DNA from: a virus
Lineage: Duplodnaviria; Heunggongvirae; Uroviricota; Caudoviricetes
Reading direction: 5' to 3' (one strand)
Virus record (IMG/VR): IMGVR_UViG_3300033070_001565
Length of the DNA stretch: 64,000 nt
The first letter of the stretch is position 1. Every line of letters starts with the position of its first letter. The position numbers and the translations under genes were made by a program. A model generated the notes under the pieces. The model had not been told where the DNA came from. It ran no database searches and saw only the letters and a list, made by a program, of their open reading frames with translations. This document shows positions 6,504-52,321 of this stretch, piece after piece.

Positions 6504-7064
6504 ATGGCAAAGCAAAAGAAAAAATCTTCAGATCCCAATCAGCTTAGAACTCTTGTTGTCGATGCGTCGTACCAACCAATTCGTCTGTGCCCATCAATCA
6601 GGGCGTTCTTGCTCCTCATGAGGAATGCAGGAGAGGTTGTCGAATCTTGGGATGTCGAGCTCGCTCCGGGTATCTATGCGCCCGCCGTTATCCGTCTCAA
6701 GCGTACAGGTGCTGGGATCTGGCTCCGCGCAAAACGTACAAAGTTCCGCCGTGAGGTTGTCTTCACTCGCGATTCGTGGACTTGCCAGTATTGTAGCGCA
6801 AGCGTTACGAACAAGAATGCCACAATCGATCATGTGCTTCCACGTAAACACGGGGGAGATACTTCATGGCAAAACTGTGTCACATGCTGCCTTTCTTGTA
6901 ATTCGAAGAAGGGATCAAAACTTGGAATGCAGCCGCTCAGGAAGCCTGCAACTCCGGATCCTCTTCACTTTCACGGCGCAAAGGGTACAAAACGTCACCC
7001 TGCATGGAAAGATTACGTCAATGAGGATGTACTTAAGGCAGTATGCGGAACAATGACCGTCTGA
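6504..7064 (+). CDS. HNH endonuclease
   Basis: The HNH zinc-finger-like motif is CQYCSA...TIDHVLPRKHGG...WQNCVTCCLSCNSKKG. Confidence 0.8.
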   Translation: MAKQKKKSSDPNQLRTLVVDASYQPIRLCPSIRAFLLLMRNAGEVVESWDVELAPGIYAPAVIRLKRTGAGIWLRAKRTKFRREVVFTRDSWTCQYCSASVTNKNATIDHVLPRKHGGDTSWQNCVTCCLSCNSKKGSKLGMQPLRKPATPDPLHFHGAKGTKRHPAWKDYVNEDVLKAVCGTMTV

Positions 7065-7339
7065 TCGACTCTTACGTGCGAAGAATCGTCGCAGAAGCAG
7101 TCGATACTGATAAGAAATTTTCTAAAGTCGATTACGACAGGGTTGCTCATGAGCTTGTGAGCAAGTATGGCAAGACCACCGAAGTTGGCTGGGAGGTTGT
7201 TGCTGTCAAAACTTTCGTAAAAGCTGAGCACAGCGTTGGCAATGAGTGGGACGAAAAGAAGCTCATTGACGCTGTACGCAAATGCCATGAGGAGAACATG
7301 GAGGCAGTGGCCGATGCCAACGTTCAAAGAATTTATTAA
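7043..7339 (+). CDS. small protein with YVRRIVAEAV N-terminal leader (capsid-targeting-like)
   Basis: N-terminus is MRNNDRLIDSYVRRIVAEAVD, the same leader as the 8-paralogue family. Confidence 0.4.
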   Translation: MRNNDRLIDSYVRRIVAEAVDTDKKFSKVDYDRVAHELVSKYGKTTEVGWEVVAVKTFVKAEHSVGNEWDEKKLIDAVRKCHEENMEAVADANVQRIY

Positions 7340-8042
7340 TGAGATTTCGACGACTCCTGTAAAAGTGCTCGTTCACGATGAGATGAACGATACTGATACT
7401 GAGATCGTTGGATCTGGAGACGATGAAGAATTCAAACTGCCGCTTCCGCAGAGATTCGCAGGTCACCAAGCAAAGTTCGCAGGGTGCGTTTCATCTCATC
7501 TCTGCGTTCTTGCAAGTTTTGCACGTGCAATACATCTTTACGCTCACAGCGCCCACGTGAGCGTAAAGGGACAAACCTTCATGCAAGATCACGAATTTCT
7601 TGGAGATGTATACTCGGCGGCCGGGGATACTGTCGATTCTCTCTTTGAACGTGCGATTGGAACAGGCGGAGACGGTCCCGGTCATGTCCTAGCTCACATG
7701 AAGGTGTGCGCAGAGATACTCAGAGAGCACTGTTGCGACACATGCTGCGGAGTTGGAGTCAATTCGATTCTCTCACGCACCGAGTCTCTCATCAAAGAAT
7801 TCGTTGAGATGATCTCTCACGTCAGAGAATCTTGTGAACTATCTGACGGTACCGATAATCTTCTGTGTGATATCGCAGACAAGTACGAAGTAACTTTGTA
7901 TAAGCTGCAGCAGCGTCTGGCTTTACAGGGATACTCAATCGTTTCCTCCTCGAGCGTTTACCGAGGAGCCCATACTCAATATCGATCGAGCTCAAAGGCG
8001 GCCCGAAGAGCTCAGCCATGTCATATTGAGTCTGCACAATGA
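7314..8042 (+). CDS. Dps/ferritin-like protein (start uncertain)
   Basis: The segment AIHLYAHSAHVSVKGQTFMQDHEFLGDVY resembles the Dps ferroxidase helix pair. The ATG at 7314 is in frame with the longer ORF starting at 7236. Confidence 0.4.
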   Translation: MPTFKEFINEISTTPVKVLVHDEMNDTDTEIVGSGDDEEFKLPLPQRFAGHQAKFAGCVSSHLCVLASFARAIHLYAHSAHVSVKGQTFMQDHEFLGDVYSAAGDTVDSLFERAIGTGGDGPGHVLAHMKVCAEILREHCCDTCCGVGVNSILSRTESLIKEFVEMISHVRESCELSDGTDNLLCDIADKYEVTLYKLQQRLALQGYSIVSSSSVYRGAHTQYRSSSKAARRAQPCHIESAQ

Positions 8043-8073
8043 AAATAAGTGTTTCCATGGAGATAATGTAAGT

Positions 8074-9129
8074 ATGAAAATTGCCATCACGGGTGTTGCA
8101 GGTCTCATTGGTTCTTGGCTTTCTCGTCACGCTCTGGATCTCGGTGACTCTGTCGTTGGATTCGATGACCTTTCTTCTGGCTACCAATCGAACATTGACA
8201 ATAGAGTAAAATTCATCCAGACGAATGTTGCGAGTGCGGCAAACAGTACTCTTTCAAAGGACTTGTTCGGTTGTGATATTGTGTACCACGCCGCTGCAAC
8301 TGCTTATGAGGGCCTGTCTGTTTTCTCTCCAACAACAATTACGAATAACATTATCACCGGCACTACGAATCTCATTACCGCAGCAGTAAATGCCCGAGTT
8401 GGCATGTTCGTGAACATGTCATCAATGGCACGTTATGGACACGGAGATGGTAAATCGTTTTTCAAAGAGACTGATGATTGTCACCCCGTTGATCCGTACG
8501 GAATGGCAAAGTATTTTGCAGAACAGCAAATGCAGATGATTGCATCTCTACACGGGATCAAGTGTATTACTGTTGTGCCTCACTCTGTGAATGGTCCCGG
8601 ACAGAAGTACGATGACCCTTACAGGAATGTTGTGTCGATCATGGCGAACCTCATGCTACAGGGGAGACAGCCATTCATCTATGGCACTGGTGAACAGAAA
8701 CGTGGTTTCTGTGATGTCAGAGATGTCGTGCCAATGATCTATCAGCTTGGATTGTTGAGGTCAGAGATGTCAGATCATGACAACAGCGAAGTGTACAACG
8801 TTGGATTCGACCGACCTGAGGATTTTGTAAGTATCAATGAACTTGCGAGGCTCGTGGCTGCCGAAGTTGGATTTAGTGATCTTAGACCCATTTACATGCC
8901 GGGCCGGCCGGCTGAGGTAAAGATCGCGAATTGCTCATCTGATAAGATCAGAGCGTACTTTCGCGGAAACATCGAGAGAAATATTACTCTCCATGAATCC
9001 GTGCATGATATTGTAGAATCAATCAAAGCGACTGGAGTAAAGCCATTCAGCTACAAGCACATTGGTGTTGAGATTGAGAATTCGAAAAAGCTGAATTGTC
9101 CCGTGACTTGGAAAAATAAGATGTTCTGA
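8074..9129 (+). CDS. NAD-dependent epimerase/dehydratase (extended SDR)
   Basis: Rossmann motif MKIAITGVAGLIGSWL and catalytic YGMAKYFAE (YxxxK). Confidence 0.8.
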   Translation: MKIAITGVAGLIGSWLSRHALDLGDSVVGFDDLSSGYQSNIDNRVKFIQTNVASAANSTLSKDLFGCDIVYHAAATAYEGLSVFSPTTITNNIITGTTNLITAAVNARVGMFVNMSSMARYGHGDGKSFFKETDDCHPVDPYGMAKYFAEQQMQMIASLHGIKCITVVPHSVNGPGQKYDDPYRNVVSIMANLMLQGRQPFIYGTGEQKRGFCDVRDVVPMIYQLGLLRSEMSDHDNSEVYNVGFDRPEDFVSINELARLVAAEVGFSDLRPIYMPGRPAEVKIANCSSDKIRAYFRGNIERNITLHESVHDIVESIKATGVKPFSYKHIGVEIENSKKLNCPVTWKNKMF

Positions 9130-9145
9130 GATATGATGCGAGTAC

Positions 9146-11209
9146 ATGATTATCGGTTACTCGTACCATGGTTTCTGCCAGCACATTACTAATGCGAACG
9201 TAGCAAAAACGCCTGACAGCCAACGTCTCATGCGGATGCAGTTCGTTGATGAGCTAGAGAAGCTCGGATGTAAAATCGTTGCCCTCCAGCCCCAGCGTGA
9301 GGAGGCTGGATCTCTTTACAAGATTACGAACGAGCATGGAAAATTTCCTGAGATTGATGCTCTCTTTCTTGAGTGGCGCTGGCCCACGTGGAAGAACACA
9401 ACAATCAGCGATCCTACCGGGTGGAGCGAGGATCTCGATTCGTTTAAATCGTGTCAAGAGCGTGACTGGGTCGAGCAGAGGAAGCTCATTCAGTACTACA
9501 CAATCGAGCGTGATATTCCGACATTCATTCACGATCTTGATTACAAGTTTACGCAGCAAGATGCAAACGCACTCTTGAATTCGTACTTGAAACATACAAA
9601 TCAGGAGATTAGTTACGAAGCATATCGGCAAGAGATATCGATTCCTAGAATCACGATTCTCGATCCCGGTCTCTCTCCATCATCCCATACCGGACATTTC
9701 AAGCGTATCTCTGTTCCCAATTACAGTAGCTACGATCCTGAGTTTATCAGTGAGTTTCGCAAGTTCTTCCCGCCTGATCCTAACCCACTCATGTACGGGT
9801 ACATTGGAAACAATTACGAAAGAGATCAGCAGTTCGAGCGTTACTATGGTAACCCATCACGTAGGCTGCGTAGAGAGGGAGTGCAGACGATCGTCTACGG
9901 TAACTGGACCTCTCGAAGTCCAGAACGTTGCGATCCCAGCACGACTTTCATCAAGTATCCCAGCATCGCCTTTCCAGGAAGGGTTGGCTTCTCAGATGCA
10001 ATGCACAGGCTCCGTGAGTTTGGATGTGTGACTCACATTGGAAAGGATGAAAAGTTTGCAGAGAATCACGTGATCACAATCAGGTATCACGAGGCGGCTC
10101 TCTGCGGAGTTCCTGCATTCGTTCCCTCTTGTTACAAACATGCAGACATTCTTGGAAAACAGTGGGTTGTGAGCGATGAAAAAGATGTTCTTGACCGCGT
10201 ACGATATGTGAGAGGCATGACGCTTCAAGAACGCCTCCGCGTTGTGGACGATCAAATGGAATCAATGCGTCTCAAGTGTGTTGAACTCAAGACGAGCGTC
10301 GATGTGAGAGACATCACAAAAAGAATTGTACGAATTGTCAATGATGATGATTTCAAGCAGACAATGACGCTATTAGGAGAAAAAAAGATGATAATGCTAT
10401 TCGAAGGTCCTGATCGCTGCGGTAAGACAACAATCGCGAAGTCTGTTTCGCTAGCGACACGCATTCCTTATTTCAAGTCTCGCGGAGAAAGAAAAGCAAT
10501 CTCATCGCGAGATAACGGTGCAGAGTGGTTCAAAAATACGCTTCTCTACTCAGGTCAGTACTTTGCAGATTACATCGAACAAACGAAACCGAGCATTATC
10601 ATTGACCGTGGGTACCCTTCTGAACGCGTGTACTCAAAGTTCTTTGCTCGTGAGACTCTTGAAGACGTACACAAGAAGATTGACGCAGCTTATAACCGCG
10701 CAAACGTTCGGATCATTGTCTGCCGTCGCAAATCTTACAAGGGTATCAAAGACGATGTGCGTCCAGACATTATCAATAGCGAGTCTCTTGAGCGAATCGA
10801 CTCGCTGTACGATGAGTTTGCAAAATGGACAACCTGCCCTGTACACACCGTTTGGGTGGATGATCACGATCTTGCTCGACAGACTGCAGATGTGATCGAG
10901 TTTGCTTGGAATGTGAAGGCATTATGCAAAACGTTCTTGTCACCGGTGGATATGGATTCATCGGCTCTCGCATGTGCAGGTTCCTGTCTCAAAATGGGAT
11001 TCAGTATGACATTGCAGACGATATGTCATTCGCACTGTACAAGCCAAAGTCAGATCACTCGAGCTCGATTAATTTCGGTTCGTGCGATTCTCCGGCTCTT
11101 CTCGCAAGGATTGCATCTGGTTACTACGATACGATCTTTCACTTTGCGGCTTGGGGACGTGTTGGAATGTGCACGAGTCAACCAATCGAGTCTCACGCTT
11201 CGAACGTAA
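9146..11209 (+). CDS. GT-B-like glycosyltransferase fused to a P-loop (dNMP-kinase-like) domain
   Basis: RYHEAALCGVPAFVP is GT-B-like (EAxxxGxPxx). The Walker A motif LFEGPDRCGKTTIAKS lies near residue 410. The tail is low-complexity and overlaps the next gene by about 285 nt. Confidence 0.5.
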   Translation: MIIGYSYHGFCQHITNANVAKTPDSQRLMRMQFVDELEKLGCKIVALQPQREEAGSLYKITNEHGKFPEIDALFLEWRWPTWKNTTISDPTGWSEDLDSFKSCQERDWVEQRKLIQYYTIERDIPTFIHDLDYKFTQQDANALLNSYLKHTNQEISYEAYRQEISIPRITILDPGLSPSSHTGHFKRISVPNYSSYDPEFISEFRKFFPPDPNPLMYGYIGNNYERDQQFERYYGNPSRRLRREGVQTIVYGNWTSRSPERCDPSTTFIKYPSIAFPGRVGFSDAMHRLREFGCVTHIGKDEKFAENHVITIRYHEAALCGVPAFVPSCYKHADILGKQWVVSDEKDVLDRVRYVRGMTLQERLRVVDDQMESMRLKCVELKTSVDVRDITKRIVRIVNDDDFKQTMTLLGEKKMIMLFEGPDRCGKTTIAKSVSLATRIPYFKSRGERKAISSRDNGAEWFKNTLLYSGQYFADYIEQTKPSIIIDRGYPSERVYSKFFARETLEDVHKKIDAAYNRANVRIIVCRRKSYKGIKDDVRPDIINSESLERIDSLYDEFAKWTTCPVHTVWVDDHDLARQTADVIEFAWNVKALCKTFLSPVDMDSSALACAGSCLKMGFSMTLQTICHSHCTSQSQITRARLISVRAILRLFSQGLHLVTTIRSFTLRLGDVLECARVNQSSLTLRT

Positions 11210-11979
11210 CTGCAACACTGAAATTGCTCGATGCATGCTCAAAAGTTGATGGGAAGAAACCGACGGTGATTGTCTCATCCTCTTCTGCTGTGTATGGGAA
11301 TGCACAGTCCGGTGAGCTTGGAGAGGATGGTCCAGTGGGCCCCATTTCACTCTATGGTCACCAGAAACTTACAGTTGAAGGGTATTGCCGTCTCTTTACA
11401 CAAACTCATGGAGTACCAACCGTGTGTCTCCGGTACTTCAATGTGTACGGATCAGGGCAACTTGCAAGAGGACCGTACACGACGGTAATGGCAGCGTGGG
11501 TCGATGCCCATGTAAGAGGTGAGCAGCTCAGGTGGGATGGCGATGGTGAACAGAGACGAGATTACGTGAATGTTGATGATGTCATCAACGCAAACATTCT
11601 CGCTGCAAAGAATCCCACCGGTAAGGTGTACAATGTTGGTACGGGATTTGATTACTCAAATTCTCAGCTGAGAGCAATGCTTGGTGATCTCGGCGTGAGA
11701 TTCGATAACGTCCGCATGGCTCCTGCAAGGATTGGTGACCCAGCAAAGACATGTGCAAATATCGACAGGATAGGTAATGATCTTGGCTGGAGGCCTCTGA
11801 TTCTCCTCAAAGAGGGTCTGAGAAATATGACAGTGATGGCTCTCATGAATAAAAGCCCAAAGAAAGAAGTGTTAAATGGAAGTAACAGGACGAAACTTTA
11901 CAGAAGTTTATGGCAAGCTGGCGAATGCTCTCATCAAATATCGTTACTTGCCCTCTCCAAGGGGATCCGAATCCCGTGA
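10924..11979 (+). CDS. NAD-dependent epimerase/dehydratase (second copy)
   Basis: MQNVLVTGGYGFIGS Rossmann motif, a YGHQK YxxxK motif, and a C-terminal GLRNMT region. Confidence 0.75.
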   Translation: MQNVLVTGGYGFIGSRMCRFLSQNGIQYDIADDMSFALYKPKSDHSSSINFGSCDSPALLARIASGYYDTIFHFAAWGRVGMCTSQPIESHASNVTATLKLLDACSKVDGKKPTVIVSSSSAVYGNAQSGELGEDGPVGPISLYGHQKLTVEGYCRLFTQTHGVPTVCLRYFNVYGSGQLARGPYTTVMAAWVDAHVRGEQLRWDGDGEQRRDYVNVDDVINANILAAKNPTGKVYNVGTGFDYSNSQLRAMLGDLGVRFDNVRMAPARIGDPAKTCANIDRIGNDLGWRPLILLKEGLRNMTVMALMNKSPKKEVLNGSNRTKLYRSLWQAGECSHQISLLALSKGIRIP

Positions 11980-12886
11980 GCTGCTGGGGGTTAATTTCGA
12001 GATCGAAGACCCGCTTGATCGTCTCCCAAGAATCCAGTCAAGGAATTTCAATCTTGCGTACTGTATTGCAGAGATTATCTGGTACCTCTCTGGTTCCAAC
12101 TCTGTCAAATGGATTGCACGGTACTCTCCATTCTGGCTCGGCGTGTCAGATGATGGTGTGACAGCGAATTCGGCTTATGGTAGCAGAATCTTCAGGCAGA
12201 ACGATGCTCTTGGATTCGATATCGTTCAATGGGAGACTGTAAAACAACATCTCATTGATGATCCATTTACACGCAGAGCAGTGATTCACATCAAAACTCC
12301 TGCAGATAATGATCCCTCGAGCAAGGACATTCCTTGCACTCTAGATCTTCAATTCATTTTGAGAGAGGGTCGTCTCAACATGTTTGTCAACATGCGTTCG
12401 AGCGATCTCATCTTTGGGATTGGAAACGACATTCCTGCATTCACATTCTTCCAAGAACTCATGGCAAATGAACTTGGAGTCGAAGTAGGGACGTACTCAC
12501 ACAAGAGCAACTCTCTGCACGTTTACCCGCGTCATTATGCTCTTGTGAATAGCATGGTGAACGAGCTCGATGCTGAGATTCCAACGTTCGTAAGAATGCC
12601 TAAATTGCCTCGAGGCGATGTTCCCATTGTCGATCTTGTGAAGGCTGCAGACGGTCTTGAGAGGAGAGATATCTCTCCCGATGAAGTGAAGGCGATCGTC
12701 GATTATTTCTCGATACTACCGTACTTCAGAGATTGGGTTTCAATCCTTGCTCTGCGGACAATCAAGAGCAGACTTAACAATCTGTCATTCGTGCTTGGCG
12801 CATATGAAATGAGAGCTGATTTTCTGAGTCTCCAGGAAGATCTCATCAAGAGTCTCCATACCGCTTACAGGTGGTATTATGCTTGA
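11876..12886 (+). CDS. thymidylate synthase-fold pyrimidine (hydroxy)methylase (ThyA/dNMP hydroxymethylase family)
   Basis: DIPCTLDLQFIL (catalytic Cys) is followed by MRSSDLIFGIGNDIPAF and SLHVY, matching the ThyA core order. His is absent after the Cys (PCT, not PCH). Confidence 0.6.
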   Translation: MEVTGRNFTEVYGKLANALIKYRYLPSPRGSESRELLGVNFEIEDPLDRLPRIQSRNFNLAYCIAEIIWYLSGSNSVKWIARYSPFWLGVSDDGVTANSAYGSRIFRQNDALGFDIVQWETVKQHLIDDPFTRRAVIHIKTPADNDPSSKDIPCTLDLQFILREGRLNMFVNMRSSDLIFGIGNDIPAFTFFQELMANELGVEVGTYSHKSNSLHVYPRHYALVNSMVNELDAEIPTFVRMPKLPRGDVPIVDLVKAADGLERRDISPDEVKAIVDYFSILPYFRDWVSILALRTIKSRLNNLSFVLGAYEMRADFLSLQEDLIKSLHTAYRWYYA

Positions 12887-13331
12887 TCGTCCGGACTGGG
12901 ACAGCGTGTGGATGCATATGGCACAGACAATTGCTCTGAGGGCCTACGATGAGAAGCTGAAGGTGGGATCCGTAATCGTCTCTGACGATAACACACGGGT
13001 TCTTGCGATCGGGTACAATGGAAATTACAAAGGTGGTCCAAATACCCGAGATTCGTTGGAGCCCGGTCAGAGTGGAATGCTCCACAGCGAGCTAAATGCT
13101 CTGTTGAAACTGAACTATCACGATCCAGTTCGCAAGAAGTTGTATGTGACTTCATCTCCGTGCAAGGACTGTGCAAAATGTATCATACAATCAGCGATTG
13201 ATGAAGTGATATTCTTGAATGTCTTTGCACGAGATCCGAGCGGAATTAGCTTGCTTAGTTCGAACGGGATTAAAGTTAGACAACTGGTGACTACTTACTT
13301 GAGTGATCCTGAACAGAAAGAAGCTCATTGA
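12879..13331 (+). CDS. dCMP deaminase (cytidine/deoxycytidylate deaminase zinc-binding)
   Basis: HSELNAL (HxE) and SPCKDCAKC (PCxxC) motifs. Confidence 0.8.
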   Translation: MLDRPDWDSVWMHMAQTIALRAYDEKLKVGSVIVSDDNTRVLAIGYNGNYKGGPNTRDSLEPGQSGMLHSELNALLKLNYHDPVRKKLYVTSSPCKDCAKCIIQSAIDEVIFLNVFARDPSGISLLSSNGIKVRQLVTTYLSDPEQKEAH

Positions 13332-16032: not shown

Positions 16033-16040
16033 TTACAGTT

Positions 16041-17154: not shown

Positions 17155-17157
17155 AGC

Positions 17158-19201: not shown

Positions 19202-20383
19202 ATGGGCGGCGCAGCTGGGCACCTCAGTCATGTTGTTGAAGACTATTCTCTAACTTTTTCGCAGGTGTACCAACTGTGCTCGGGAGTTGGGAGGGGAATT
19301 CTTGAGGATGTTAGCGAAAAAATCGACGGAATGAACATCGTGTACACTGTATCAGACAGTGGACAGATTCGCTGTGCAAGGAATGGTGGAGATATCGCTC
19401 GCGGTGGAATGACCGCAGATGAGCTAGCTGCCAAGTTTTCTGGTAGAGGAAATCTTTCGATTGCTTTTAACGAAGGATTTCAGACTCTTTCAGATGTTTG
19501 CTCCGATCTTTCACCTGAGATTATCGATACAGTCTTTCTTGGTGGTAAGAGGTGGTATTCTGCAGAAATCGTATATTCGAATAATCCGAATGTGATCAAT
19601 TACGATGGAAATCACATCGTGTTTCACAGGAGTCCCATTTTCGAATTCAATCCCGAAACAGGTAAAACAGCTCCTGCAGCCGACTCTGCGTGGGCAGATA
19701 AGATTAATCAGCTAGCAAGGAGGTTCGAACAAAAGAAAACATCTACAGGCTGGCATGTGCACTCTGCGCTGAAAACATCACTAAAAGCGATGGCCGATGA
19801 ATCTTCTCTAAATGCTCTTAAGAGCACTCTCAATGAGATGGCTTCTTCTGTTGGAAAGACAGAATCGATTACTCTCGGAGAGTACGTACAGATCTCGCTT
19901 ACTGATATTGTAAAAGGTCGTCTCGGAGATGCAGCGCTGGAGCAGATCGTAAAACGTATGATGGAGATTCCAGGGTGTCTTACGCTGACTCAGATCAAGA
20001 AACTCATCCCTCCAGAAGCATACACGCAAACGAAGGCTCTTGTCGAATCTTCTCCAAAACTCATCAAATCGATTCTAAGACCGCTCGAAATTGCGATTCA
20101 CAAATTCTCTGTTGATCTCCTTAGAGGTATGGGATCCGTCCTCGTAAAGGATCACCGTCAAGAAGTAGAGCGGCTCAGAATGGCCGTTTCTTTCGCTGTC
20201 GATTCAGTAAAAGACAGAATGAATGACAGCATCAAAACTCAGCTTGAAAAGCTTGGTGACATCTCGAACATCTCGTCATCAATGGAGGGCATTGTGGTAA
20301 TGTTCGAGGGTAACGCTTACAAGTTCACAGGAGCATTTGCTCCCGTTAATCAAATTCTAGGAATGGGCCGCTATGCCAAGTGA
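19202..20383 (+). CDS. hypothetical protein (possible nucleotidyltransferase, KxDG-like motif)
   Basis: SEKIDGMNIVY resembles ligase motif I. This is a weak signal. Confidence 0.4.
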   Translation: MGGAAGHLSHVVEDYSLTFSQVYQLCSGVGRGILEDVSEKIDGMNIVYTVSDSGQIRCARNGGDIARGGMTADELAAKFSGRGNLSIAFNEGFQTLSDVCSDLSPEIIDTVFLGGKRWYSAEIVYSNNPNVINYDGNHIVFHRSPIFEFNPETGKTAPAADSAWADKINQLARRFEQKKTSTGWHVHSALKTSLKAMADESSLNALKSTLNEMASSVGKTESITLGEYVQISLTDIVKGRLGDAALEQIVKRMMEIPGCLTLTQIKKLIPPEAYTQTKALVESSPKLIKSILRPLEIAIHKFSVDLLRGMGSVLVKDHRQEVERLRMAVSFAVDSVKDRMNDSIKTQLEKLGDISNISSSMEGIVVMFEGNAYKFTGAFAPVNQILGMGRYAK

Positions 20384-22472: not shown

Positions 22473-22490
22473 CTGTGATAACCTAATGGT

Positions 22491-23156: not shown

Positions 23157-23166
23157 TTTATTTAGC

Positions 23167-24156
23167 ATGCCATCTTTGATCGAACAATACGTAAAAGCCG
23201 TGATCGCTGAGGATAGCGTAGCGGCAGAGGCGGGTGTATCTGGCTACACAGCTGGAGGTGGTATGGGATATGGCGTACAGAGGCTAGGTGGGCCCTCTGT
23301 AGCCCAGATATTTCTCAAACCATTCGCCAATGCATTCAAAGTTGCGGCCTCTGAGGGTGGTCAGACGATCAGCAGAGTGATGTCTCTCATAAAAGCCCAG
23401 GTAGCGACTGTCATATCGAAAGATCTTGCTCTAGAGTACACAAAGATCTGGAAAGATCACGCAACAGCTGTACAGCAATTCAAGCAGAAATACGCGGAGG
23501 CATACAAAGATATCGATCGTGTTACGACAGGAAACGAAGATTTTCTTTTCGTTGCATTCATGCTCGAACCTGGCGCGATGCTTGCAAGTTACATTCTTCC
23601 AAAATCTCCAAAGGTAGGAGTATCAATCGCGAATTGGCTCTCGGGAGGATCTCTTGGGAAGCAATGGGAACGTGAGAAGAGAAATGTGCAGCAAGACATT
23701 GGTCATGCATCGTATCGTTCAAGGAGCGAAGAACTGTCGTTCTATGACTGGCTCAGAAAGAGAATGACGAGAGTATCAGACGTTCTCGATGACAGTCAGG
23801 TTGGATCTGAGATGGCGCACGATGCTCAGAGAATCATCAAAGAGCAAGCTCGAAGAATCAGAGAGATGGTCGTATCTGTCGCAGTTGCACAGACTCCACA
23901 AGATATCGTAAGGGCGCTGCATTCATCAAGACAGATCGATATGAGGGAGATCATCAAGACGCTTAGCGGAAAGATGAATCAGCAACAGATCGACGCTCAG
24001 ATGCTCCATGCAATGAAAGAATCTGTAAAAATGTACGTTCTCACTCAGATCAATACACACATCAAATCAGTTCGTGCAAGTGGAATGTCTGCAGACTCTT
24101 TGTATGTAAAGTCATATACGAAGCTATACCATGAGATTGAACAGGTGAAAATCTAA
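23167..24156 (+). CDS. hypothetical protein with YVKAVIAED N-terminal leader
   Basis: N-terminus is MPSLIEQYVKAVIAEDSV, the same leader class as the 8-paralogue family. Confidence 0.45.
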   Translation: MPSLIEQYVKAVIAEDSVAAEAGVSGYTAGGGMGYGVQRLGGPSVAQIFLKPFANAFKVAASEGGQTISRVMSLIKAQVATVISKDLALEYTKIWKDHATAVQQFKQKYAEAYKDIDRVTTGNEDFLFVAFMLEPGAMLASYILPKSPKVGVSIANWLSGGSLGKQWEREKRNVQQDIGHASYRSRSEELSFYDWLRKRMTRVSDVLDDSQVGSEMAHDAQRIIKEQARRIREMVVSVAVAQTPQDIVRALHSSRQIDMREIIKTLSGKMNQQQIDAQMLHAMKESVKMYVLTQINTHIKSVRASGMSADSLYVKSYTKLYHEIEQVKI

Positions 24157-24425
24157 TGTCAAAAAAGAAAGAATCTCCGCAACTTGATGGTGTGTCTTCC
24201 GAGGATACAAAACGTTACGTTAGAGAGTTTGTTGCTGCAATTGATGCAATCGATAGTGAGATCGAAACTCTGAAGGAAGATCGTAAGGATACGATCGAGG
24301 ATTACAAAGAGAAGCTCGATATGAAGACTCTCAAGGCCGTTCTCTCTGTCATGAAGATCATGAAGCGTGTTGATAATAAGGGAACCTTCGATGAGTACAA
24401 AGAAGCGATCTCAACGGACGTCTGA
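24156..24425 (+). CDS. small acidic coiled-coil protein
   Basis: Product of 89 aa with an ATGA-type overlap. Confidence 0.4.
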   Translation: MSKKKESPQLDGVSSEDTKRYVREFVAAIDAIDSEIETLKEDRKDTIEDYKEKLDMKTLKAVLSVMKIMKRVDNKGTFDEYKEAISTDV

Positions 24426-25119
24426 GACGCTGGTAGGATTGAAGCTTACTAAGAAAGAGCTGAAATTTCTTTATAGGCTTTCATCGGTCTACGTTAATGA
24501 GAGTACTGCTGTGTCAGAGCTGCTTGCGCATTCTTTGAAGTGTACAAAATCAGAGCAAACTCTTGTTAACAAGATCGTCGAAGCATGTAAGAGATCGGGA
24601 ATTCCTGCAGGTCAGTCCGCACCTGATTTCTTGCTCGTTCCTAACGGGATTGTTCCTCTTGGAATCGTACAAGCAAAGAGAGAATTAACAGTGACAGTTC
24701 TGTCAATATCTCCTGGCGAGCTTGTATACGTTTACGAGCTCAAACGTGCTGCAATCATTCTCGGACTCTGTACAGAGCGTATCACACGGGAGAAAAAAGA
24801 TGGCACGCACACGTATCACACAGTTAAATTGCACGATCGTGCTCCGGTCGCACTTGAGGATCTCAAACCAGAAGAATTCTACTGGACGAAGGACAGAGAA
24901 GCATTCACGAATAAAATTCTGAGTATGGTGAAGGAAAAATTGAACGTCACAATAGATACTCAGACAGCTTCACTGAATGTGGGAGAAAACGATCACGAGA
25001 GTGATAATTTAACATGTGCCAAAACCACCAGAAGCCCCAGACGGCGCGCCCCTAGAAAAATGGGCGTGGGCGCCCCAACGCTCAGACGGTGTACCCGAGG
25101 AGGCGAATACCGAACATGA
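24391..25119 (+). CDS. hypothetical protein
   Basis: Internal Met start. The tail reads through a GC-rich island. Confidence 0.35.
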   Translation: MSTKKRSQRTSETLVGLKLTKKELKFLYRLSSVYVNESTAVSELLAHSLKCTKSEQTLVNKIVEACKRSGIPAGQSAPDFLLVPNGIVPLGIVQAKRELTVTVLSISPGELVYVYELKRAAIILGLCTERITREKKDGTHTYHTVKLHDRAPVALEDLKPEEFYWTKDREAFTNKILSMVKEKLNVTIDTQTASLNVGENDHESDNLTCAKTTRSPRRRAPRKMGVGAPTLRRCTRGGEYRT

Positions 25120-25612
25120 GAAACAGCTGCTAGGACAGATAGCAGCTTTTTTGAATTATTCGAAGCCACTTCCTCCAGAGACTATCAAAGAACTCAATAT
25201 GTACCTCAAAAAGGGCTGGTACAGAGGAGTGTTGAAAACGCCTGATTCCAAAAAAGTGTACAGAGGAATTTATTTGCCATCTGATTCATTCAGACAGGCT
25301 TACAGGATTCCTCCGGACGTTTCTGAGGGAGTGATTACAAACAATCAGTGGTACACCGCTCCAAATGGTTGTTCGTCATGGACAACGAATAAAACCGTTG
25401 CATCAATCGGCGCGAAACCAAGACCATTTCGCCCAGCACCAGGTCTTGCTCAGGTAGTTCTGCATGCTTATACAGCACAGAATCAATTCAAGTTCGTCGT
25501 TTGCAGATCGGGTCTCTATAAGATTGCTGGTCTTGATTCGAACGATGAAAAATCAGAGGTCATTGGACTCGGTAGAATCGAAATCTTCAAAATAGAGTAC
25601 GAGATTGGCTGA
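25016..25612 (+). CDS. hypothetical protein (GTG start or later Met)
   Basis: Product of 198 aa, upstream of the paralogue array. Confidence 0.35.
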   Translation: MPKPPEAPDGAPLEKWAWAPQRSDGVPEEANTEHEKQLLGQIAAFLNYSKPLPPETIKELNMYLKKGWYRGVLKTPDSKKVYRGIYLPSDSFRQAYRIPPDVSEGVITNNQWYTAPNGCSSWTTNKTVASIGAKPRPFRPAPGLAQVVLHAYTAQNQFKFVVCRSGLYKIAGLDSNDEKSEVIGLGRIEIFKIEYEIG

Positions 25613-26226
25613 TGTTCGAATCATACGTTCGTTCAATCGTCGAAGCTGCAGTCAAACCAATGCAAGCTGCCGAAAATGGTCTCGCTCTGTGCAAGAAGCA
25701 AGGCAGCATTACTCTGTACGATCCTGCAAAGCTCCTGAGCGATCCCACTGGCTCTCTCCCAAATATCGGTCAGTCTTATTCAAAAATTGTGATGGCTCAC
25801 TTGAAGTACGTAACGAAATCAGCGGGAGGTGAGAAACTCAATCAAGTAAAATCTGCAGCAGCGAAACACGGATACGGGCCCGTGATCTATGACGCTCTGC
25901 TGAATACAGGGTGGACAATGCCAGACAGACTCTCTGTATCTCACGAGGCCCTACGCGTTTGGAACTATTACGCGAATAAACGCGGAGATGTTTCGATGAA
26001 GCCTCTGCCTCCAGCATTCTGTGTACCAGATGATGATGTGTACAATGACGAACAGTTGAAACTCGTAAACTCTGCGTACTTTGTACCAGATCTACAATCG
26101 GGTTACTCTGAACTGATCGATGCGCACGAGGAATTTGTACGCGCTCTCCGTCCGTATCACACAGCAAATTCTGTCGAAACGTACCTGTCAAAGGCAGGAG
26201 ATCTTCTATTCGGTGAGCTGTACTGA
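25612..26226 (+). CDS. tandem paralogue 1 of 8 (YVRSIVEAAV leader; GYGPxxYD / PDRxSVS / RVWxYY core)
   Basis: MFESYVRSIVEAAV...HGYGPVIYD...PDRLSVSHEALRVWNYY. Confidence 0.6.
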   Translation: MFESYVRSIVEAAVKPMQAAENGLALCKKQGSITLYDPAKLLSDPTGSLPNIGQSYSKIVMAHLKYVTKSAGGEKLNQVKSAAAKHGYGPVIYDALLNTGWTMPDRLSVSHEALRVWNYYANKRGDVSMKPLPPAFCVPDDDVYNDEQLKLVNSAYFVPDLQSGYSELIDAHEEFVRALRPYHTANSVETYLSKAGDLLFGELY

Positions 26227-26846
26227 TGATCAACACTTATGTAAAGAGGATCGTAGAAGCAGCTGTACAACCCTCTCGTGCGCTTTCGGAGGGTCTCGCT
26301 CTTTGCTTCTCTCAACCACTTGATATTATCGTGCTGTACAAACCATCCGTGTTTGGAAATCCGGATGAAGGATTGCTGAAGACTTCACACAAGGGAGTTG
26401 TCTTTGGATACCTCTCGTACAGAGATAGAAGCGTTGACGATTATCACATCAGAGAGGTAACGGCCTCAGCAGCAACTCATGGGTATGGTCCGATTCTGTA
26501 CGATACTCTCCTACACAGTGGCTGGGCGATACCTGATCGCGGAAGCGTTTCAAAAGCAGCTCTCAGAGTTTGGGAGTATTACGCAAAATCACGACCCGAA
26601 ACTGTGATCAAGAAGATTCCAGATCCACTCAGAGATACGTCAGACAACTTGCAGTTTGATGAAAGAAAAAATCATCTTCTCAACTCAATGTACTCTCTCC
26701 CAAGCATTGATCAGAGATATGACGATCTGCTCGCAGAACACGAGAAATTCGTTGAGTCAATGCGTCGTTACAGACAACAGATCGTAATAGAGAAGAAGCT
26801 CGACGATCTTGGACAAGACTTCTTTGCGGAGAAATACAGTGGTTGA
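26226..26846 (+). CDS. tandem paralogue 2 of 8
   Basis: MINTYVKRIVEAAV...HGYGPILYD...PDRGSVSKAALRVWEYY, joined by an ATGA overlap. Confidence 0.6.
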   Translation: MINTYVKRIVEAAVQPSRALSEGLALCFSQPLDIIVLYKPSVFGNPDEGLLKTSHKGVVFGYLSYRDRSVDDYHIREVTASAATHGYGPILYDTLLHSGWAIPDRGSVSKAALRVWEYYAKSRPETVIKKIPDPLRDTSDNLQFDERKNHLLNSMYSLPSIDQRYDDLLAEHEKFVESMRRYRQQIVIEKKLDDLGQDFFAEKYSG

Positions 26847-27459
26847 GAGGTATGTACGTGCAATTGTTGAGAAGGCCATTGTACCAGAGAAGGCTCTGCA
26901 ACATGGTCTGTCACTCCTAAAAGGAAAGGACTGTCTGGTCCTCTACAATGGGTGGGAGGCCACCAACAGGGCCCGGGCCTCGAAGGGAGGTATTCCACCT
27001 GCCAGTGTCATTCCCATCATTGGATTCTTGCAGTGGTACGACCGCCTGGGCACTCCGGCAGTGAGAGAGATCAAAGCTTCGTTTGCAGTACACGGATGCG
27101 GACCGCTTCTTTACGATATTGCAATGTCTGGTTGCGAGTGGATGATGGCTGACAGATTTTCAGTTTCTGCAGCTGCAGAGCGTGTTTGGTTGTATTACTA
27201 CTCAAAACGTAGCGATGTTGAGCACGCTCCTCTTCCAGAGAAATATCAGAAAGATCCCGAAGAACTTACTGAGCGGGAGAGAACAGTTCTCAATTCGATG
27301 TATAGAATCAAAGACAAGATCGACTCACACGAACTTGAAGCTGCTCACAGAGATCACTGTGAAGAAATCGCGCGGATTTCTGGTGAGGCAGGAATAAGAA
27401 AATTCGAGAGACAGATTGTCCTCGCTGGCGAACAAAAGTTTTCGGATGCATTCACATGA
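26839..27459 (+). CDS. tandem paralogue 3 of 8 (GTG start)
   Basis: VVERYVRAIVEKAIV...HGCGPLLYD...RVWLYYY. Confidence 0.5.
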   Translation: MVERYVRAIVEKAIVPEKALQHGLSLLKGKDCLVLYNGWEATNRARASKGGIPPASVIPIIGFLQWYDRLGTPAVREIKASFAVHGCGPLLYDIAMSGCEWMMADRFSVSAAAERVWLYYYSKRSDVEHAPLPEKYQKDPEELTERERTVLNSMYRIKDKIDSHELEAAHRDHCEEIARISGEAGIRKFERQIVLAGEQKFSDAFT

Positions 27460-28073
27460 TTATCAAAGAAGCAGCTAGCACAATATCAGACGCAATAGGC
27501 GATGGTCTGGCACTGTACGATTCAGATCCTGGTAACATCAGCGCGAGTATTATTCTGTACGATCCGGTCATCGCTAGACTGAGACCGACCGCAGAGTGTA
27601 TTACTGCTTACGTTGGCGTCGATAATGATCCATACATTGCTGGAAGATTTGGGATGGTTTCGTCATCAGTGGCAGAGTCGGGTTATGGACCTCTGACGTA
27701 CGATTACGCTCTCTCGAGAGGATTCAAAATCATCTCTGACAGATCGTCAGTCTCGTCATCTGCTCAGAGAGTATGGGTGTACTACTATCTCAAGCGTAGC
27801 GATGTCATGAAACAGCGAATCATTGCTCCTGACACGAAACCGGTAATAAAGGCTTGGACATATCCATCTTACAAGATTGAAGATGACGATACGAGAGATG
27901 CTCTCAATCATGCTTACTGGATTCCGAACGGAGAGGAAAAATTCGTAGATCTCCTCGAGGCCCATGATACGCGTTTGAACAGTATCAAAGGTCAGGCAGC
28001 CAAGAGACAGTTCCTGCAGTCTCTCCGTAGTGCGGCACTGTCGTTTTTCCACGCTAATTACAAGGACGAGTGA
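27456..28073 (+). CDS. tandem paralogue 4 of 8 (diverged leader)
   Basis: MIIKEAASTISDAIGDGLALYD...SGYGPLTYD...RVWVYYY. Confidence 0.55.
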   Translation: MIIKEAASTISDAIGDGLALYDSDPGNISASIILYDPVIARLRPTAECITAYVGVDNDPYIAGRFGMVSSSVAESGYGPLTYDYALSRGFKIISDRSSVSSSAQRVWVYYYLKRSDVMKQRIIAPDTKPVIKAWTYPSYKIEDDDTRDALNHAYWIPNGEEKFVDLLEAHDTRLNSIKGQAAKRQFLQSLRSAALSFFHANYKDE

Positions 28074-28732
28074 TGTCTCTCCAAGCGTATGTAAGAAAAA
28101 TTGTCGAGGCGGCGCTGACATCATCTGATGCAGAGAGTTCAGGTCTTGCCCTTTGCGTTGTTAACAGAGACGGTACGCTTGCGATACTTTACAACGTTAG
28201 TAAAATGAAAGACGCTCTTTGGCATCACAAGGGAAGAGACGTTGACGCAATTGTCGGGATGATTCACGTAACTTCGGCTGAGTATAACGTTCATGGACCG
28301 AGTTACGGTGGGCTTGAGGTTGTGGCAGCTGCGGCGGAGAAAGGTTACGGCCCACTACTTTACGATTTTGCACTGAGTTTGGGAAAACCGATTATGCCAG
28401 ATCGTGAGTCGGTTTCGAAAAAAGCTTCTGCAATATGGGATTACTTCTATTCAAAGAGACCAGATGTCAAGAAACTGAGGCTTGACAACAAGTATGATCC
28501 AAAAACGCCAGACCCGTATGATGATTCGTGGTATCACAAAGAGACTGGAAAGGAGAATCCACTAAATTTCGCATACGTTGGCGAGGGAAATCCTTGCACG
28601 TCACTGATTGCTGCTCATGATCGTCTCTGCGAAACATTCGAACGTCTCGGTGTTTGCAAGAAAGAAAACTTTGTCAACCTACTGAAGATTGTTGGAGACA
28701 GATACTTCATTGGGAGATATAGACACGGATGA
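28073..28732 (+). CDS. tandem paralogue 5 of 8
   Basis: MSLQAYVRKIVEAAL...KGYGPLLYDFALS...IWDYFY...LRLDNKYDPKTPDPYDDS. Confidence 0.6.
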   Translation: MSLQAYVRKIVEAALTSSDAESSGLALCVVNRDGTLAILYNVSKMKDALWHHKGRDVDAIVGMIHVTSAEYNVHGPSYGGLEVVAAAAEKGYGPLLYDFALSLGKPIMPDRESVSKKASAIWDYFYSKRPDVKKLRLDNKYDPKTPDPYDDSWYHKETGKENPLNFAYVGEGNPCTSLIAAHDRLCETFERLGVCKKENFVNLLKIVGDRYFIGRYRHG

Positions 28733-29478
28733 TCGCTGAACAGTACATCAAAAGTCTCGTCGAGGCTGCAGTGACAGCAGACGCTGCGCAGTCTGCAGGA
28801 ATGGCTCTCATGATCACTGCCACTGGTGACAAGATGGATATTGTCCTCTATGATCCAAAGAAATTCTTGAGATTTGCGCAAGAGAATCTTCAAGGGGAGG
28901 ACGCGCATTCTGATTCAGACTGTAGCGATTGCATCTATGGCCATGTTCAGATGAGACCTGTACCGCAGAGTTATGGACAGAGCTATGGAGCCTATGTCAT
29001 CAATACGACGTCGTCTCTCAAGGGATACGGTCCTCTCATGTACGATATTGCTCTTGGGCTGGGTCGACCCGTAATACCAGACCGTTCATCTGTTTCTCCC
29101 GCTGCGAAGAAGATCTGGACAGTTTACAAACTCAATCGTTCAGATGTGAAGAAGCTTCCACTGGATAACAAGGACGCTCCAAGAACGCCTGATCCAAAAG
29201 ACGATTCTGTCATTTATCCTGGCGATGACGAGCTCACGAATCCGCTCAACTTTGCGTACATCCGTCCGGGTTCGAACGCACAGTACTCCGGAATGCTCGA
29301 GAAGCACAGGAAAGTTGCGAGAATCGTGACGGCAAAGGTCCCAAGCATCACTGTGAAAGACGTTGAAGAGATGCTGAGACACGGTGGCGGAGAGTTCTTC
29401 TTCAGGAGATACGCAAGTGAAAACTTACGTGAAGCTCATTGTAGAGGCTGCAATGGGAGTCGACTCTGCAGCCTCTGA
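28729..29478 (+). CDS. tandem paralogue 6 of 8 (no stop at the family end, reads about 60 nt into the next copy)
   Basis: MIAEQYIKSLVEAAV...KGYGPLMYD...LPLDNKDAPRTPDPKDDS...FFFRRY, then an extension. Confidence 0.55.
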   Translation: MIAEQYIKSLVEAAVTADAAQSAGMALMITATGDKMDIVLYDPKKFLRFAQENLQGEDAHSDSDCSDCIYGHVQMRPVPQSYGQSYGAYVINTTSSLKGYGPLMYDIALGLGRPVIPDRSSVSPAAKKIWTVYKLNRSDVKKLPLDNKDAPRTPDPKDDSVIYPGDDELTNPLNFAYIRPGSNAQYSGMLEKHRKVARIVTAKVPSITVKDVEEMLRHGGGEFFFRRYASENLREAHCRGCNGSRLCSL

Positions 29479-30079
29479 GGGATACGCCCTCTATTCGAAC
29501 GACTATGGTCGAGGTCAGACAGCACTCCTGTACGATCCCGAATACGTGTGGAGAGTCTCGTCTTCTGGAAAGCTCCCACAACAATCCTCGGGACCCGTAG
29601 TTGCGTATATCAACACGCGGAAGAGAGAGAATATCAAGGGTCACATGTACGGAGCTCGCGCAATTGCGTCTGCAGCTGCTCGTAAGGGATGGGGACCCAT
29701 GCTGTACGATTTCATCATCTCTTCAGGAAAAGTCGCACCAGATCGTCTCTCTGTTTCATCTAGCGCAGAGTCTGTTTGGTCGTATTACAAAAACAAGCGT
29801 CCTGATGTAGAAAAAGAGAAGATAGACAATGTTCTCGCACCGAAGACACCGACACCAGTCGACGATGGCGAGGTCTATGATAAGGGAAGTGATGAGAATC
29901 CTCTCAATTACGTGTACTCAATGAAATCAGATATCGCGAGTCAGTACTCTCCGCTCATCAGATCTCACAGCGAATTTTGCGATAGGATGCAGCAGAAGAG
30001 AGGAATCTCACGAGATGATCTCGAAGCGTACCTCAAGAAGTGCGGAAGCATGTTCTTCATGAAGAAATACGAAGGATAA
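29417..30079 (+). CDS. tandem paralogue 7 of 8 (GTG start)
   Basis: VKTYVKLIVEAAMG...KGWGPMLYD...VWSYYKNKRPDV. Confidence 0.5.
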   Translation: MKTYVKLIVEAAMGVDSAASEGYALYSNDYGRGQTALLYDPEYVWRVSSSGKLPQQSSGPVVAYINTRKRENIKGHMYGARAIASAAARKGWGPMLYDFIISSGKVAPDRLSVSSSAESVWSYYKNKRPDVEKEKIDNVLAPKTPTPVDDGEVYDKGSDENPLNYVYSMKSDIASQYSPLIRSHSEFCDRMQQKRGISRDDLEAYLKKCGSMFFMKKYEG

Positions 30080-30080
30080 A

Positions 30081-30773
30081 ATGATCGGGTCTTATGTCAA
30101 ACGTCTCGTTGAAGCTGCACTCGGAATCGACTCTGCACTAGCTGCAGGTCTTGCACTCTGTGTAAATAAAGGTTCAGGTGGAGCTTACATTGTGCTTTAC
30201 GATGCAAAGGAGTACGTTAAACACGCTCTTGCGAATGCGAAACACATTGGCGAAATGACAGATCCCCGTACGGCTGAATGTGTGTACGGGTTTATCAGAA
30301 TGCATGTGGTCGATCCAAGCAACGGAGAGAGTTACGGTTCATACGAGATTGCGAACTCAGTTGCAAGGAAAGGGTACGGACCGTTCATGTACGATGTTGC
30401 AATGAGTCTTGGAAAACCCGTCATATCAGATCGCGGATCTGTTTCTCCAGATGCACAAAAAATTTGGAAATACTACAAAGATAACAGATCTGACGTGAAG
30501 AAGCTTCCGCTCGATAACAAATCTGCACCGAGAACACCAGAAACTTTTGATGACTCGATTGTATTTGACGCCGGAAAGGAATCTGAACTCACGAACCCTC
30601 TTAATTTTGCATATAAGAGTGGTGGAATCGATTTTTCAAAATTGACTCAGAGACACGAAAAAGTCTTGCAGCTGCTGAAAACGAAAATACCAGAACTGAC
30701 TCCTGACAGAGTAGAGTCAAGTCTTAATCATTTTGCTGAAGATTACTTCATCAAGAGATATCACGGAGTCTGA
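30081..30773 (+). CDS. tandem paralogue 8 of 8
   Basis: MIGSYVKRLVEAAL...KGYGPFMYD...LPLDNKSAPRTPETFDDS. Confidence 0.6.
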   Translation: MIGSYVKRLVEAALGIDSALAAGLALCVNKGSGGAYIVLYDAKEYVKHALANAKHIGEMTDPRTAECVYGFIRMHVVDPSNGESYGSYEIANSVARKGYGPFMYDVAMSLGKPVISDRGSVSPDAQKIWKYYKDNRSDVKKLPLDNKSAPRTPETFDDSIVFDAGKESELTNPLNFAYKSGGIDFSKLTQRHEKVLQLLKTKIPELTPDRVESSLNHFAEDYFIKRYHGV

Positions 30774-52317: not shown

Positions 52318-52321
52318 AGGA

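Follow-up and report, generated by a model that had tools for sequence, protein, structure and literature searches.

Why should proteins that share no other similarity, encoded within one segment of a phage genome, begin with almost the same short peptide? This question is raised by the IMG/VR virus record IMGVR_UViG_3300033070_001565, of which a stretch of 64 kb (referred to here as the window) was analysed; it is a densely coded piece of the genome of an uncultured jumbo phage. An N-terminal leader is shared there by a series of GNAT-like proteins and by proteins of other families, and the original prediction, made from the letters of the sequence, likened it to the capsid-targeting sequence (CTS) of phage T4 internal proteins and proposed that its carriers are packaged into the head, processed and injected with the DNA. 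Results of our analysis favour, with a probability of roughly 0.55, the explanation that the leader is a T4-CTS-like prohead-targeting propeptide, which would be removed after a Glu residue by a protease of the Peptidase_S77 family and would mark packaged, and probably injected, cargo.

The proteins that a phage injects together with its DNA are active before its genes are expressed and include anti-restriction and host-takeover factors, and beyond a few cultured phages they can be found by virion proteomics only. If the leader does serve as a packaging tag, sequence alone would suffice to list the effectors that thousands of uncultured jumbo phages inject, and many new effector families would be flagged, among them the GNAT-like family with its nine copies in the window. 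Such tags would also provide new short signals with which large capsids could be filled with foreign proteins, a use to which the T4 CTS is already put, while their genome-specific flavours would form a natural data set on the co-evolution of a targeting signal and its receptor.

The leader motif in the window

The pattern [YF]-[VI]-[KR]-x-x-Φ-…-Φ-x-E (Φ, hydrophobic residue) opens 12 window genes of four unrelated families: eight of the nine GNAT-like paralogues, the open reading frames (ORFs) at 7043 and 23167, and the 576-aa paralogues at 45682 and 47421. The aromatic residue is located 3-10 residues from the start codon in all 12 leaders, and every leader ends with hydrophobic-x-Glu (IVE, LVE, VAE, IAE, LVE, LIE, LTE). 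The four carrier families are mutually unrelated by BLAST and have nothing in common by Pfam or PHROGs; searches of the leader-bearing window proteins against these two databases gave nothing above thresholds. The leader that had been reported on the unrelated ORFs 7043 and 23167 is indeed present there (strict pattern; 17.5 and 10.0 bits), while its reported occurrence on all nine paralogues holds for eight of them, paralogue 4 (27456..28073, MIIKEAAS) being devoid of the Y-V-[KR] half. The range 7043-30120 originally given for the motif was too narrow: the ninth paralogue lies outside it, on the minus strand (49044..49769), and the carriers at 45682 and 47421 had been missed.

The strict pattern, Y[VI][KR].[IL]V[EA][EA]A, has seven matches in the six reading frames of the window, all of them on the plus strand and at most 16 codons past the preceding stop codon, and it did not occur once in 1000 residue shuffles of window ORFs of at least 80 aa. 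A looser pattern matched nine times, whereas the shuffles gave 0.2 matches on average and never more than 3. With a hidden Markov model (HMM) of the leader in the window lineage, the 12 genes scored 9.8-19.5 bits, the decoy maximum was 6.5 bits and the next-best real match reached 3.7 bits, a separation that is partly circular because the model was trained on the same window genes and on seven leaders of related contigs; no such circularity affects the shuffle test or the data sets of related loci described below. Chance as the source of the motif was ruled out by the shuffle and decoy scores. A further candidate, RYVREFVAAI in the ORF 24156..24425, was rejected (3.7 bits vs. the decoy maximum of 6.5).

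A contig of 255,832 bp from ENA (L001; ERZ869929 NODE_3) encodes orthologues of window proteins with 62-94% identity. In the nine orthologues compared (those of eight paralogues and of the 23167 protein), the Glu-ending site is kept in nine of nine; the aromatic residue is sometimes replaced by Leu, and [IL]-V-E is never altered. The cleavage-type [LI]-x-E site of the original prediction is thereby found, at the level of sequence, at the end of every window leader and in the L001 orthologues. The leader is conserved at the protein level. At the conserved Leu and Arg positions, synonymous codons differ freely among leader copies, and an element acting at the DNA level was therefore rejected; an RNA element or a long recombination tract is likewise improbable.

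Leader and fold in the GNAT-like family

The nine paralogues are members of one family, with the invariant motifs GLAL, LYD, G-Y-G-P-x-x-Y-D, P-D-R-x-S-V-S and W, and are GNAT-like, putative acyltransferases; eight are tandem genes on the plus strand (25612..30773), and the ninth is encoded on the minus strand (49044..49769). The AlphaFold (AF2) model of paralogue 8 has an overall predicted local distance difference test score (pLDDT) of 86.5 and a predicted template modelling score of 0.86. Its leader helix (residues 1-11) has a pLDDT below 50, and the confident core starts from about residue 12, so that in the model the leader lies outside the predicted GNAT-like fold.

A full HMMER search extended the family to 2551 clusters at 50% identity. 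Among the best 150 representatives of this search, whose N-termini were surveyed, 116 have a full-length N-terminal segment, with hydrophobic-x-Glu at the boundary in 111 of the 116, and seven have long N-terminal extensions. The remaining 27 are without a full-length leader: 23 of them start near Φ-x-E (e.g., MKRKLNE-KAV) and in four the domain is preceded by hardly any residues. It follows that the domain can do without the aromatic half of the leader.

Leaders in related phage contigs

The related set comprised 74 IMG/VR loci that encode the GNAT-like family, many of them contigs of 100-390 kb, and leaders were searched for over 90 loci with an HMM of 17 residues. At a threshold of at least 8 bits, 81 matches were obtained versus three decoys. 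In the 76 distinct matches, the aromatic residue stands exactly six residues past the start codon in 40 and at most 14 residues past it in 72. The leader-bearing proteins that were clustered (80) fall into 47 BLAST clusters, with Pfam matches to ART-PolyVal, NUDIX, HD_4, RNase_T and Acetyltransf_1. On the marine contig L008, which encodes a distant homologue of the family (P0008), about 12 consecutive genes open with M-K-x-L-R-x-Y-I-R-x-x-L-x-E and have HAD-like, HD and unknown domains as cargo. Arrays of about 13 tagged genes in L054 and of eight in each of L044 and L052 were also found, and the leaders of L054 span 12 clusters.

The comparison of leaders over 12 positions gave a mean identity of 0.48 within one genome, on unrelated cargo, vs. 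0.34 between different genomes, on homologous cargo (p = 5e-15, which is only indicative because the pairs are not independent). The leader sequence, as judged from these alignments, tracks the genome and not the cargo. This is the pattern that would be expected of a signal read by a genome-encoded partner, and intragenomic conversion would give it as well.

Copies of the leader occur occasionally at internal positions, behind N-terminal regions of about 100-1200 residues (P0009, L044, L008, L054, L042). In the metagenomic protein P0009 (396 aa), an ART-PolyVal domain (Pfam 6.7e-22) is joined to a GNAT-like domain via an internal leader-like helix, ...ALLRRVIRSTLLNEA..., which suggests that P0009 is either a polyprotein or a link between polyvalent proteins and effectors with tags of their own.

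Head modules and S77 proteases

Probing of the 74 family loci with proteins of cyanophage S-RIM8 (portal, protease, capsid, terminase, sheath) revealed T4-like structural genes in 26 of the 74 and head genes in 13 of the 74. In L019, L021, L076 and L081, a Gp23-type capsid gene immediately precedes the GNAT-like gene, which in L039 is located between the portal and protease genes. Small proteins of the head modules near GNAT-like genes have leader-like N-termini.

An independent set of 80 loci was picked solely for the presence of a Peptidase_S77 protease. At a leader HMM score of at least 7 bits, it gave 18 matches versus one decoy, and 14 of the 17 distinct matches lie at most 1.2 kb from the protease gene (4.0 expected; binomial p = 6e-7). 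Two matches are the N-terminus of the protease itself, MKLLREYYEL (MKLLREYYELCEGG), and one heads an ORF of 490 aa directly downstream of the protease, in the position of the T4 scaffold gene 22. The leader of the relatives is in this way tied to T4-type head modules and S77 proteases. As to the protease type, the original prediction referred to T4 gp21 as an S49-type enzyme, which has to be corrected, since gp21 belongs to Peptidase_S77.

A small conserved protein is encoded between the S77 protease and scaffold genes of L019 (2155-2577), L021 (4091-4522), L262 (6230-6742) and L338 (7090-7524), directly following the protease in L019 and L338. It starts with M-K-x-x-R-x-E-L-K-x-[LI]-[IV]-[KR]-E-C-L-[IV]-E-I-L-x-E-G, which includes two stacked [LI]-x-E sites, and is likely a prohead-core protein. 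The same interval of the L262 head module also contains a gene (5739-6233) whose product is by eye peptide-deformylase-like (GVGIAAPQIG).

The search for a prohead protease suggested in the original prediction had a divided outcome: none is encoded in the 64-kb window, but S77 proteases are encoded by relatives (L262) and by a contig matched to the window by composition, L338. In tetranucleotide composition, this contig of 22.9 kb (IMGVR_UViG_3300033066_001998) correlates at 0.959 with the window and at 0.953 with L001, where parts of the window correlate mutually at 0.84-0.93; in the ranking of 308 loci by composition to L338, window-lineage loci take the top eight places and the next locus follows at 0.80. 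L338 encodes Terminase_6N, Portal_T4 with an intein, Peptidase_S77 (6.4e-23), a protein of scaffold size (8357-9982), Gp23, neck proteins and a sheath protein, and its ORF of 240 aa carries ...DVRRYIRAIVENE (...RRYIRAIVENE), which is the leader flavour of the window. Judging from composition, L338 is a probable head module of the window's phage lineage.

A second line leads through L025, which shares 16 ORFs with the window, including the DnaE gene, and whose GNAT-like genes start with LLREYVxLVVEAAV. The same 85.8-kb contig contains a T4-like tail module with two sheath genes, and double-sheath contigs such as L262 encode TerL, portal, S77 protease, scaffold and Gp23. One double-sheath contig with TerL, portal, S77 protease and Gp23 comes from Joint Genome Institute (JGI) sample 3300020576, which also holds contigs identical to the window; as a part of the window's phage it was rejected (composition r = 0.69). 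Likewise, L368, from the same ENA assembly as L001, was rejected as a relative, being by composition an unrelated AT-rich phage. In a metagenome scan with the L338 capsid protein, no near-identical copy was found.

Two features of these modules may be added. The tandem tail-sheath paralogues, T4-like and of about 1000 aa each, are encoded in L185 (6904-13054), L186 (475-6564) and L173 (6823-13057). The T4-type portal gene of L338 (1956-5600) contains the intein mentioned above (Pfam Intein_splicing 4.9e-19), and the portal ORF as read begins with a leader-like small protein, which is encoded by a separate gene of 97 aa in L262.

Possible function of the leader and alternative explanations

According to the explanation that we favour, the leader would be a detachable N-terminal amphipathic helix of 11-18 residues ending with hydrophobic-x-Glu. 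This helix would dock the protein on the prohead scaffolding core during head assembly, and a gp21-type (Peptidase_S77) protease would then cut after Glu, at IVE/AA in the paralogues, VAE/AV in the 7043 protein, IAE/DS in the 23167 protein, and LVE/GR and LIE/GR in the 576-aa pair (the slash marks the predicted cut). The predicted mature N-termini are AAVKPMQ... for paralogue 1, AVDTDKK... for the 7043 protein, DSVAAEAG... for the 23167 protein and GRLEDAK... for the 45682 and 47421 proteins. The mature cargo, which in the window consists of nine putative acyltransferases of the GNAT-like family and of proteins of three other kinds, would remain in the head and enter the host with the DNA. Docking on the core, cleavage after Glu, packaging, injection and the presence of the protease gene in the window's own genome are all what we infer from sequence comparisons.

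A wider form of the prohead-targeting explanation may be considered as well, although we put it forward tentatively and would not bet on it at even odds: in a very large clade of uncultured jumbo phages with T4-type heads, the leader may be a general tag by which the set of injected effectors is defined. The flavour of each genome would then co-evolve with its own scaffold or protease, and the host would receive, along with the DNA, up to about 13 tagged enzymes (GNAT-like, ART, NUDIX, HD, nucleases) encoded in one tandem array.

Several observations weigh against a propeptide for prohead targeting. The leader genes of the window are surrounded by genes of replication and nucleotide metabolism, no protease, capsid or portal gene lies within its 64 kb, and the T4 late promoter, TATAAATA, was absent in a scan of the window. 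What connects L338 with the window is its composition and its leader flavour, not a physical overlap, and the capsid protein of the 255-kb relative is absent among the 120 matches listed for two capsid-protein searches. The similarity to the T4 CTS is too short for a meaningful E-value. Since the residues that follow the Glu, AAVxxxxAxxxGLAL, are conserved in the GNAT-like family, Φ-x-E-A-A could cap a helix of the domain instead of being a site of cleavage. Finally, the GNAT-like genes of some relatives are located in neck/sheath (L032/L173) or baseplate (L022) regions, which makes a tail rather than a head destination possible.

The last observation bears on the main rival explanation, in which the leader is a docking or address helix for another destination or partner, with no need of cleavage; we consider it unlikely, but more probable than the other rivals. 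The lumen of the tail or baseplate, the membrane, the GroEL-like chaperonin encoded at 40803..42413, and a regulatory or oligomerisation hub are all candidates. An amphipathic, genome-specific and cargo-independent helix would suit any trans-acting receptor; a leader-bearing NUDIX gene accompanies the GNAT-like genes within the tape-measure/baseplate and neck/sheath regions of the above relatives (L022; L032/L173), and leader-like small proteins are encoded between the sheath and tube genes of L185. However, leader-like N-termini concentrate beside the S77 prohead protease and on the protease itself, no tie between the leader and chaperonin or membranes was seen, and a pure docking helix would not need the near-invariant Φ-x-Glu, which in the T4 precedent has the same spacing.

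It is improbable that the leader is a by-product of a recombination or cassette junction, of gene conversion or of a translation-initiation region, i.e., a peptide without a targeting role, behind which new genes would have been placed. Such an origin would agree with the tandem arrays, in which genes often overlap (ATGA junctions) and the start is conserved, and with the leader identity that is higher within a genome than between orthologues, as conversion would give, and it has a precedent in the modular shuffling known in hyperplastic regions of T4-type phages (PMC2839356, PMC4122927). The differing synonymous codons at the conserved Leu and Arg, however, are accompanied by neither a long identical DNA tract nor an RNA motif. 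The amino acid pattern is kept in very distant genomes, with GC contents from about 30% to 65%, and scattered genes (7043, 23167, 45682) and proteins of head modules have the leader as well.

The weakest explanation, that the motif is the first helix of the GNAT-like domain and reached its other carriers by small partial duplications or chance, draws on the internal helix of P0009 directly before the domain, on the conservation of the post-Glu residues along with the domain, and on the N-terminus of the 23167 protein, which permits a copied module because it resembles those of the paralogues over about 23 residues, but it is very improbable, given that AF2 places the helix, at a pLDDT below 50, outside the confident core, that the helix is missing from 27 of 150 family representatives, that proteins without a GNAT-like domain (HAD-like, HD, NUDIX, ART, exonuclease and many of unknown kind) begin with the same leader, and that chance is excluded.

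Comparison with known systems

The T4 CTS, correctly quoted in the original prediction as MKTYQEFIAE, is cleaved once by gp21 and is sufficient for the packaging of foreign proteins (PMC8442874). Its residues 4 and 7 serve targeting, while residues 8 and 10 serve processing, and a change of the Glu to Asp blocks processing in T4 and leaves targeting intact (PMC9026906); the CTS is the sole shared part of the otherwise diverse internal proteins of T-even phages (PMC3012670). Like the CTS of IPI, IPII, IPIII and Alt, the leader is a short N-terminal peptide common to otherwise unrelated proteins, in which [LI]-x-E comes at the end, after positions with hydrophobic or aromatic residues, and its genes are grouped in variable loci. 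For paralogue 7, whose proposed closeness to the T4 CTS concerns a stretch too short for statistics, the start at GTG 29417, called in an orthologous contig (220 aa), gives fMet-KTYVKLIVE; identical residues occupy 6 of 10 positions (M1, K2, T3, Y4, I8, E10), making it the closest of the window leaders, of which the others share just Y...[IL].E with the CTS. T4 Alt is an ADP-ribosyltransferase, and the cargo here, GNAT-like in the window and ART-PolyVal in relatives, is likewise of the host-modifying enzyme kind. As in T4, head genes for Gp23, Portal_T4 and Peptidase_S77 go with the leader in this lineage.

Unlike the T4 CTS, the leader has a longer consensus, [YF]-[VI]-[KR]-x-x-Φ-(x)-x-E, or M-K-x-L-R-x-Y-I-R-x-x-L-x-E in relatives, genome-specific flavours, and internal copies in fusion proteins, and it is known from sequence alone. 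The arrays are far bigger than in T4 (eight tandem genes and others in the window, about 13 in L054), and the replication module is of DnaE type.

Two groups of cultured phages lie between these systems. In cyanophage S-RIM8 (L090 12480-12806; NC_020486 94105-94431), a hypothetical protein encoded in the structural module, between gp114 and a virion structural protein, starts with MKSYNEFISE. It is nearly the T4 CTS, and the classical CTS therefore appears to be conserved in a marine cyanophage; it received no score from the leader HMM. The leader-bearing ART-PolyVal protein of L052 has homologues in Ackermannviridae (relatives of Vi01, LIMEstone and CBA120), of the Menlow gp024 type, that start with MKTFLDFLREE, and Ackermannviridae possess a Peptidase U9 (gp21-family) protease (PMC3220722). 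As judged from their N-termini, both cases support a bridge between the leader and the T4-type CTS.

In phiKZ-like giant phages, propeptides are mostly longer than 100 residues and are cut at A/S/G-x-E, and the proteins gp53 and gp54 of SPN3US have 15 identical N-terminal residues (PMC5694885). The inner-body and ejection propeptides of phiKZ, 201phi2-1 and SPN3US resemble the leader in that they occur in giant phages, are cut after Glu, by a gp21-related protease, and have N-termini kept between diverged paralogues, in their case of head-internal families. In contrast, the leaders described here have 11-18 residues with [LIV]-x-E, and the capsid protein is by Pfam of Gp23 type and not of phiKZ type. 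A phiKZ-type inner-body propeptide was rejected on the grounds of length, site and capsid type.

Polyvalent proteins of phages and conjugative elements are injected with DNA (Iyer et al. 2017, as cited in PMC7824862), and passages of that review of jumbo-phage genomics mention injected ART and GNAT polyvalent proteins (PMC7824862). Their repertoire (ART-PolyVal, GNAT, NUDIX, HD, nucleases) is the same as that of the leader-bearing proteins, and P0009 fuses two of these domains, ART-PolyVal and GNAT-like, via the leader-like helix; polyvalent proteins are, however, single giant multidomain chains, whereas here separate small genes are each tagged. A description of the leader was not found in the open-access literature, the above passages of PMC7824862 being silent on it.

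The principle is known from T4, while the consensus, the genome flavours, the array size, the enzyme cargo and the clade differ from those of T4. A short terminal peptide brings unrelated enzymes into an HK97-fold shell also in encapsulins. Unlike the leader, the cargo-loading peptides of encapsulins are usually C-terminal, bind the shell protein, are not removed by a protease and have no role in injection.

Leader-bearing genes of the window

Among the tandem GNAT-like paralogues, seven of eight start with x(3-5)-Y-[VI]-[KR]-x-[IL]-V-E-[AK]-A, and copy 4 has MIIKEAA only. All eight are encoded on the plus strand. Paralogue 1 (25612..26226) has the leader MFESYVRSIVE/AAV and paralogue 2 (26226..26846) the leader MINTYVKRIVE/AAV. 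Paralogue 3 (26839..27459) has a GTG start, taken from its 206-aa L001 orthologue, and the leader VVERYVRAIVE/KAI. In the truncated leader of paralogue 4 (27456..28073), MIIKE/AAS, the aromatic half is gone and I-x-E is retained, like in the short members of the family. They are followed by paralogue 5 (28070..28732) with (V)MSLQAYVRKIVE/AAL, paralogue 6 (28729..29478) with MIAEQYIKSLVE/AAV, paralogue 7 (29417..30079), GTG-started, with (f)MKTYVKLIVE/AAM, and paralogue 8 (30081..30773), the protein that was modelled, with MIGSYVKRLVE/AAL. The ninth paralogue (49044..49769, minus strand; 9.8 bits) opens with VKLTNLAKFVRTIVLTEAI, its leader is VKLTNLAKFVRTIVLTE/AI, and its variant of the motif is KFVRTIVLTEA.

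The remaining carriers are all encoded on the plus strand. The 98-aa product of ORF 7043..7339 opens with DSYVRRIVAEAV, and its leader, MRNNDRLIDSYVRRIVAE/AV (about 7043-7096), matches the strict pattern and scores 17.5 bits with the HMM of the window lineage. This protein belongs to no Pfam family and has a weak match to phrog_24501, and its AF2 model, computed without an alignment (pLDDT 60.6), is uninformative on its leader. The 329-aa product of ORF 23167..24156 opens with EQYVKAVIAEDS and has the leader MPSLIEQYVKAVIAE/DSVAAEAG (about 23167-23211; 10.0 bits); the similarity of its N-terminus to those of the paralogues covers about 23 residues. Its L001 orthologue opens with MQSVIEQYVRAVISEE, and its L018 homologue has L018's own leader flavour, PLRILIRDLIKED. 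The 576-aa protein encoded at 45682..47412, which belongs to no Pfam family, opens with MRALREYIRLHIQDILVEGR and has the leader MRALREYIRLHIQDILVE/GR, and its homologue in L022/L023 opens with MLLRECIRLLVVEG. Its paralogue of 575 aa (47421..49148) opens with MSYLREYIRLCIPEILIEGR and has the leader MSYLREYIRLCIPEILIE/GR.

Relatives and other genes of the window

By Pfam, the window encodes a DnaE-type polymerase (2984..6496) and a Cpn60/GroEL-like chaperonin (40803..42413), with further matches to UvdE, an AAA ATPase and a DinG-like helicase; thymidylate-synthase-like, deaminase and epimerase genes were recognized by eye as well. Proteins of the window were found again on JGI and Logan contigs. 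In 50,697 phage records, blastn and tblastn searches with the paralogue array, paralogue 8 and P0008 gave no match, and the DnaE gene of the window matches those of cultured phages at no more than 31% identity; these comparisons point to no cultured phage close to the window. A look-up of the proteins at the window edges found replication genes upstream of the window and nothing new downstream, and scans of the window for sigma-70 promoters and terminators were uninformative.

The minus strand of the region 52000-64000 contains an array of over 25 small, seemingly paralogous ORFs (about 57-144 aa). They have near the N-terminus the motif hydrophobic-P-G-x-L/M (e.g., ITPGCLIS, VTPGMLVSF, LTPGELVTW, IIPGCMYS). 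The array occurs also at the right end of L016 (19350-20178), and contigs of the window lineage tend to end in or near this region.

Two plus-strand ORFs without a match in Pfam deserve mention. The one directly upstream of the paralogue array (25016-25612, 198 aa) is kept in L001 and has no clear leader; by eye, its YRG...SSWT stretches recall R-S-E ADP-ribosyltransferases. The other (19202-20383, 393 aa) is conserved in L018 and L066 and contains an E-K-I-D-G-M-N stretch, which by eye is like the KxDG motif of ligases and nucleotidyltransferases.

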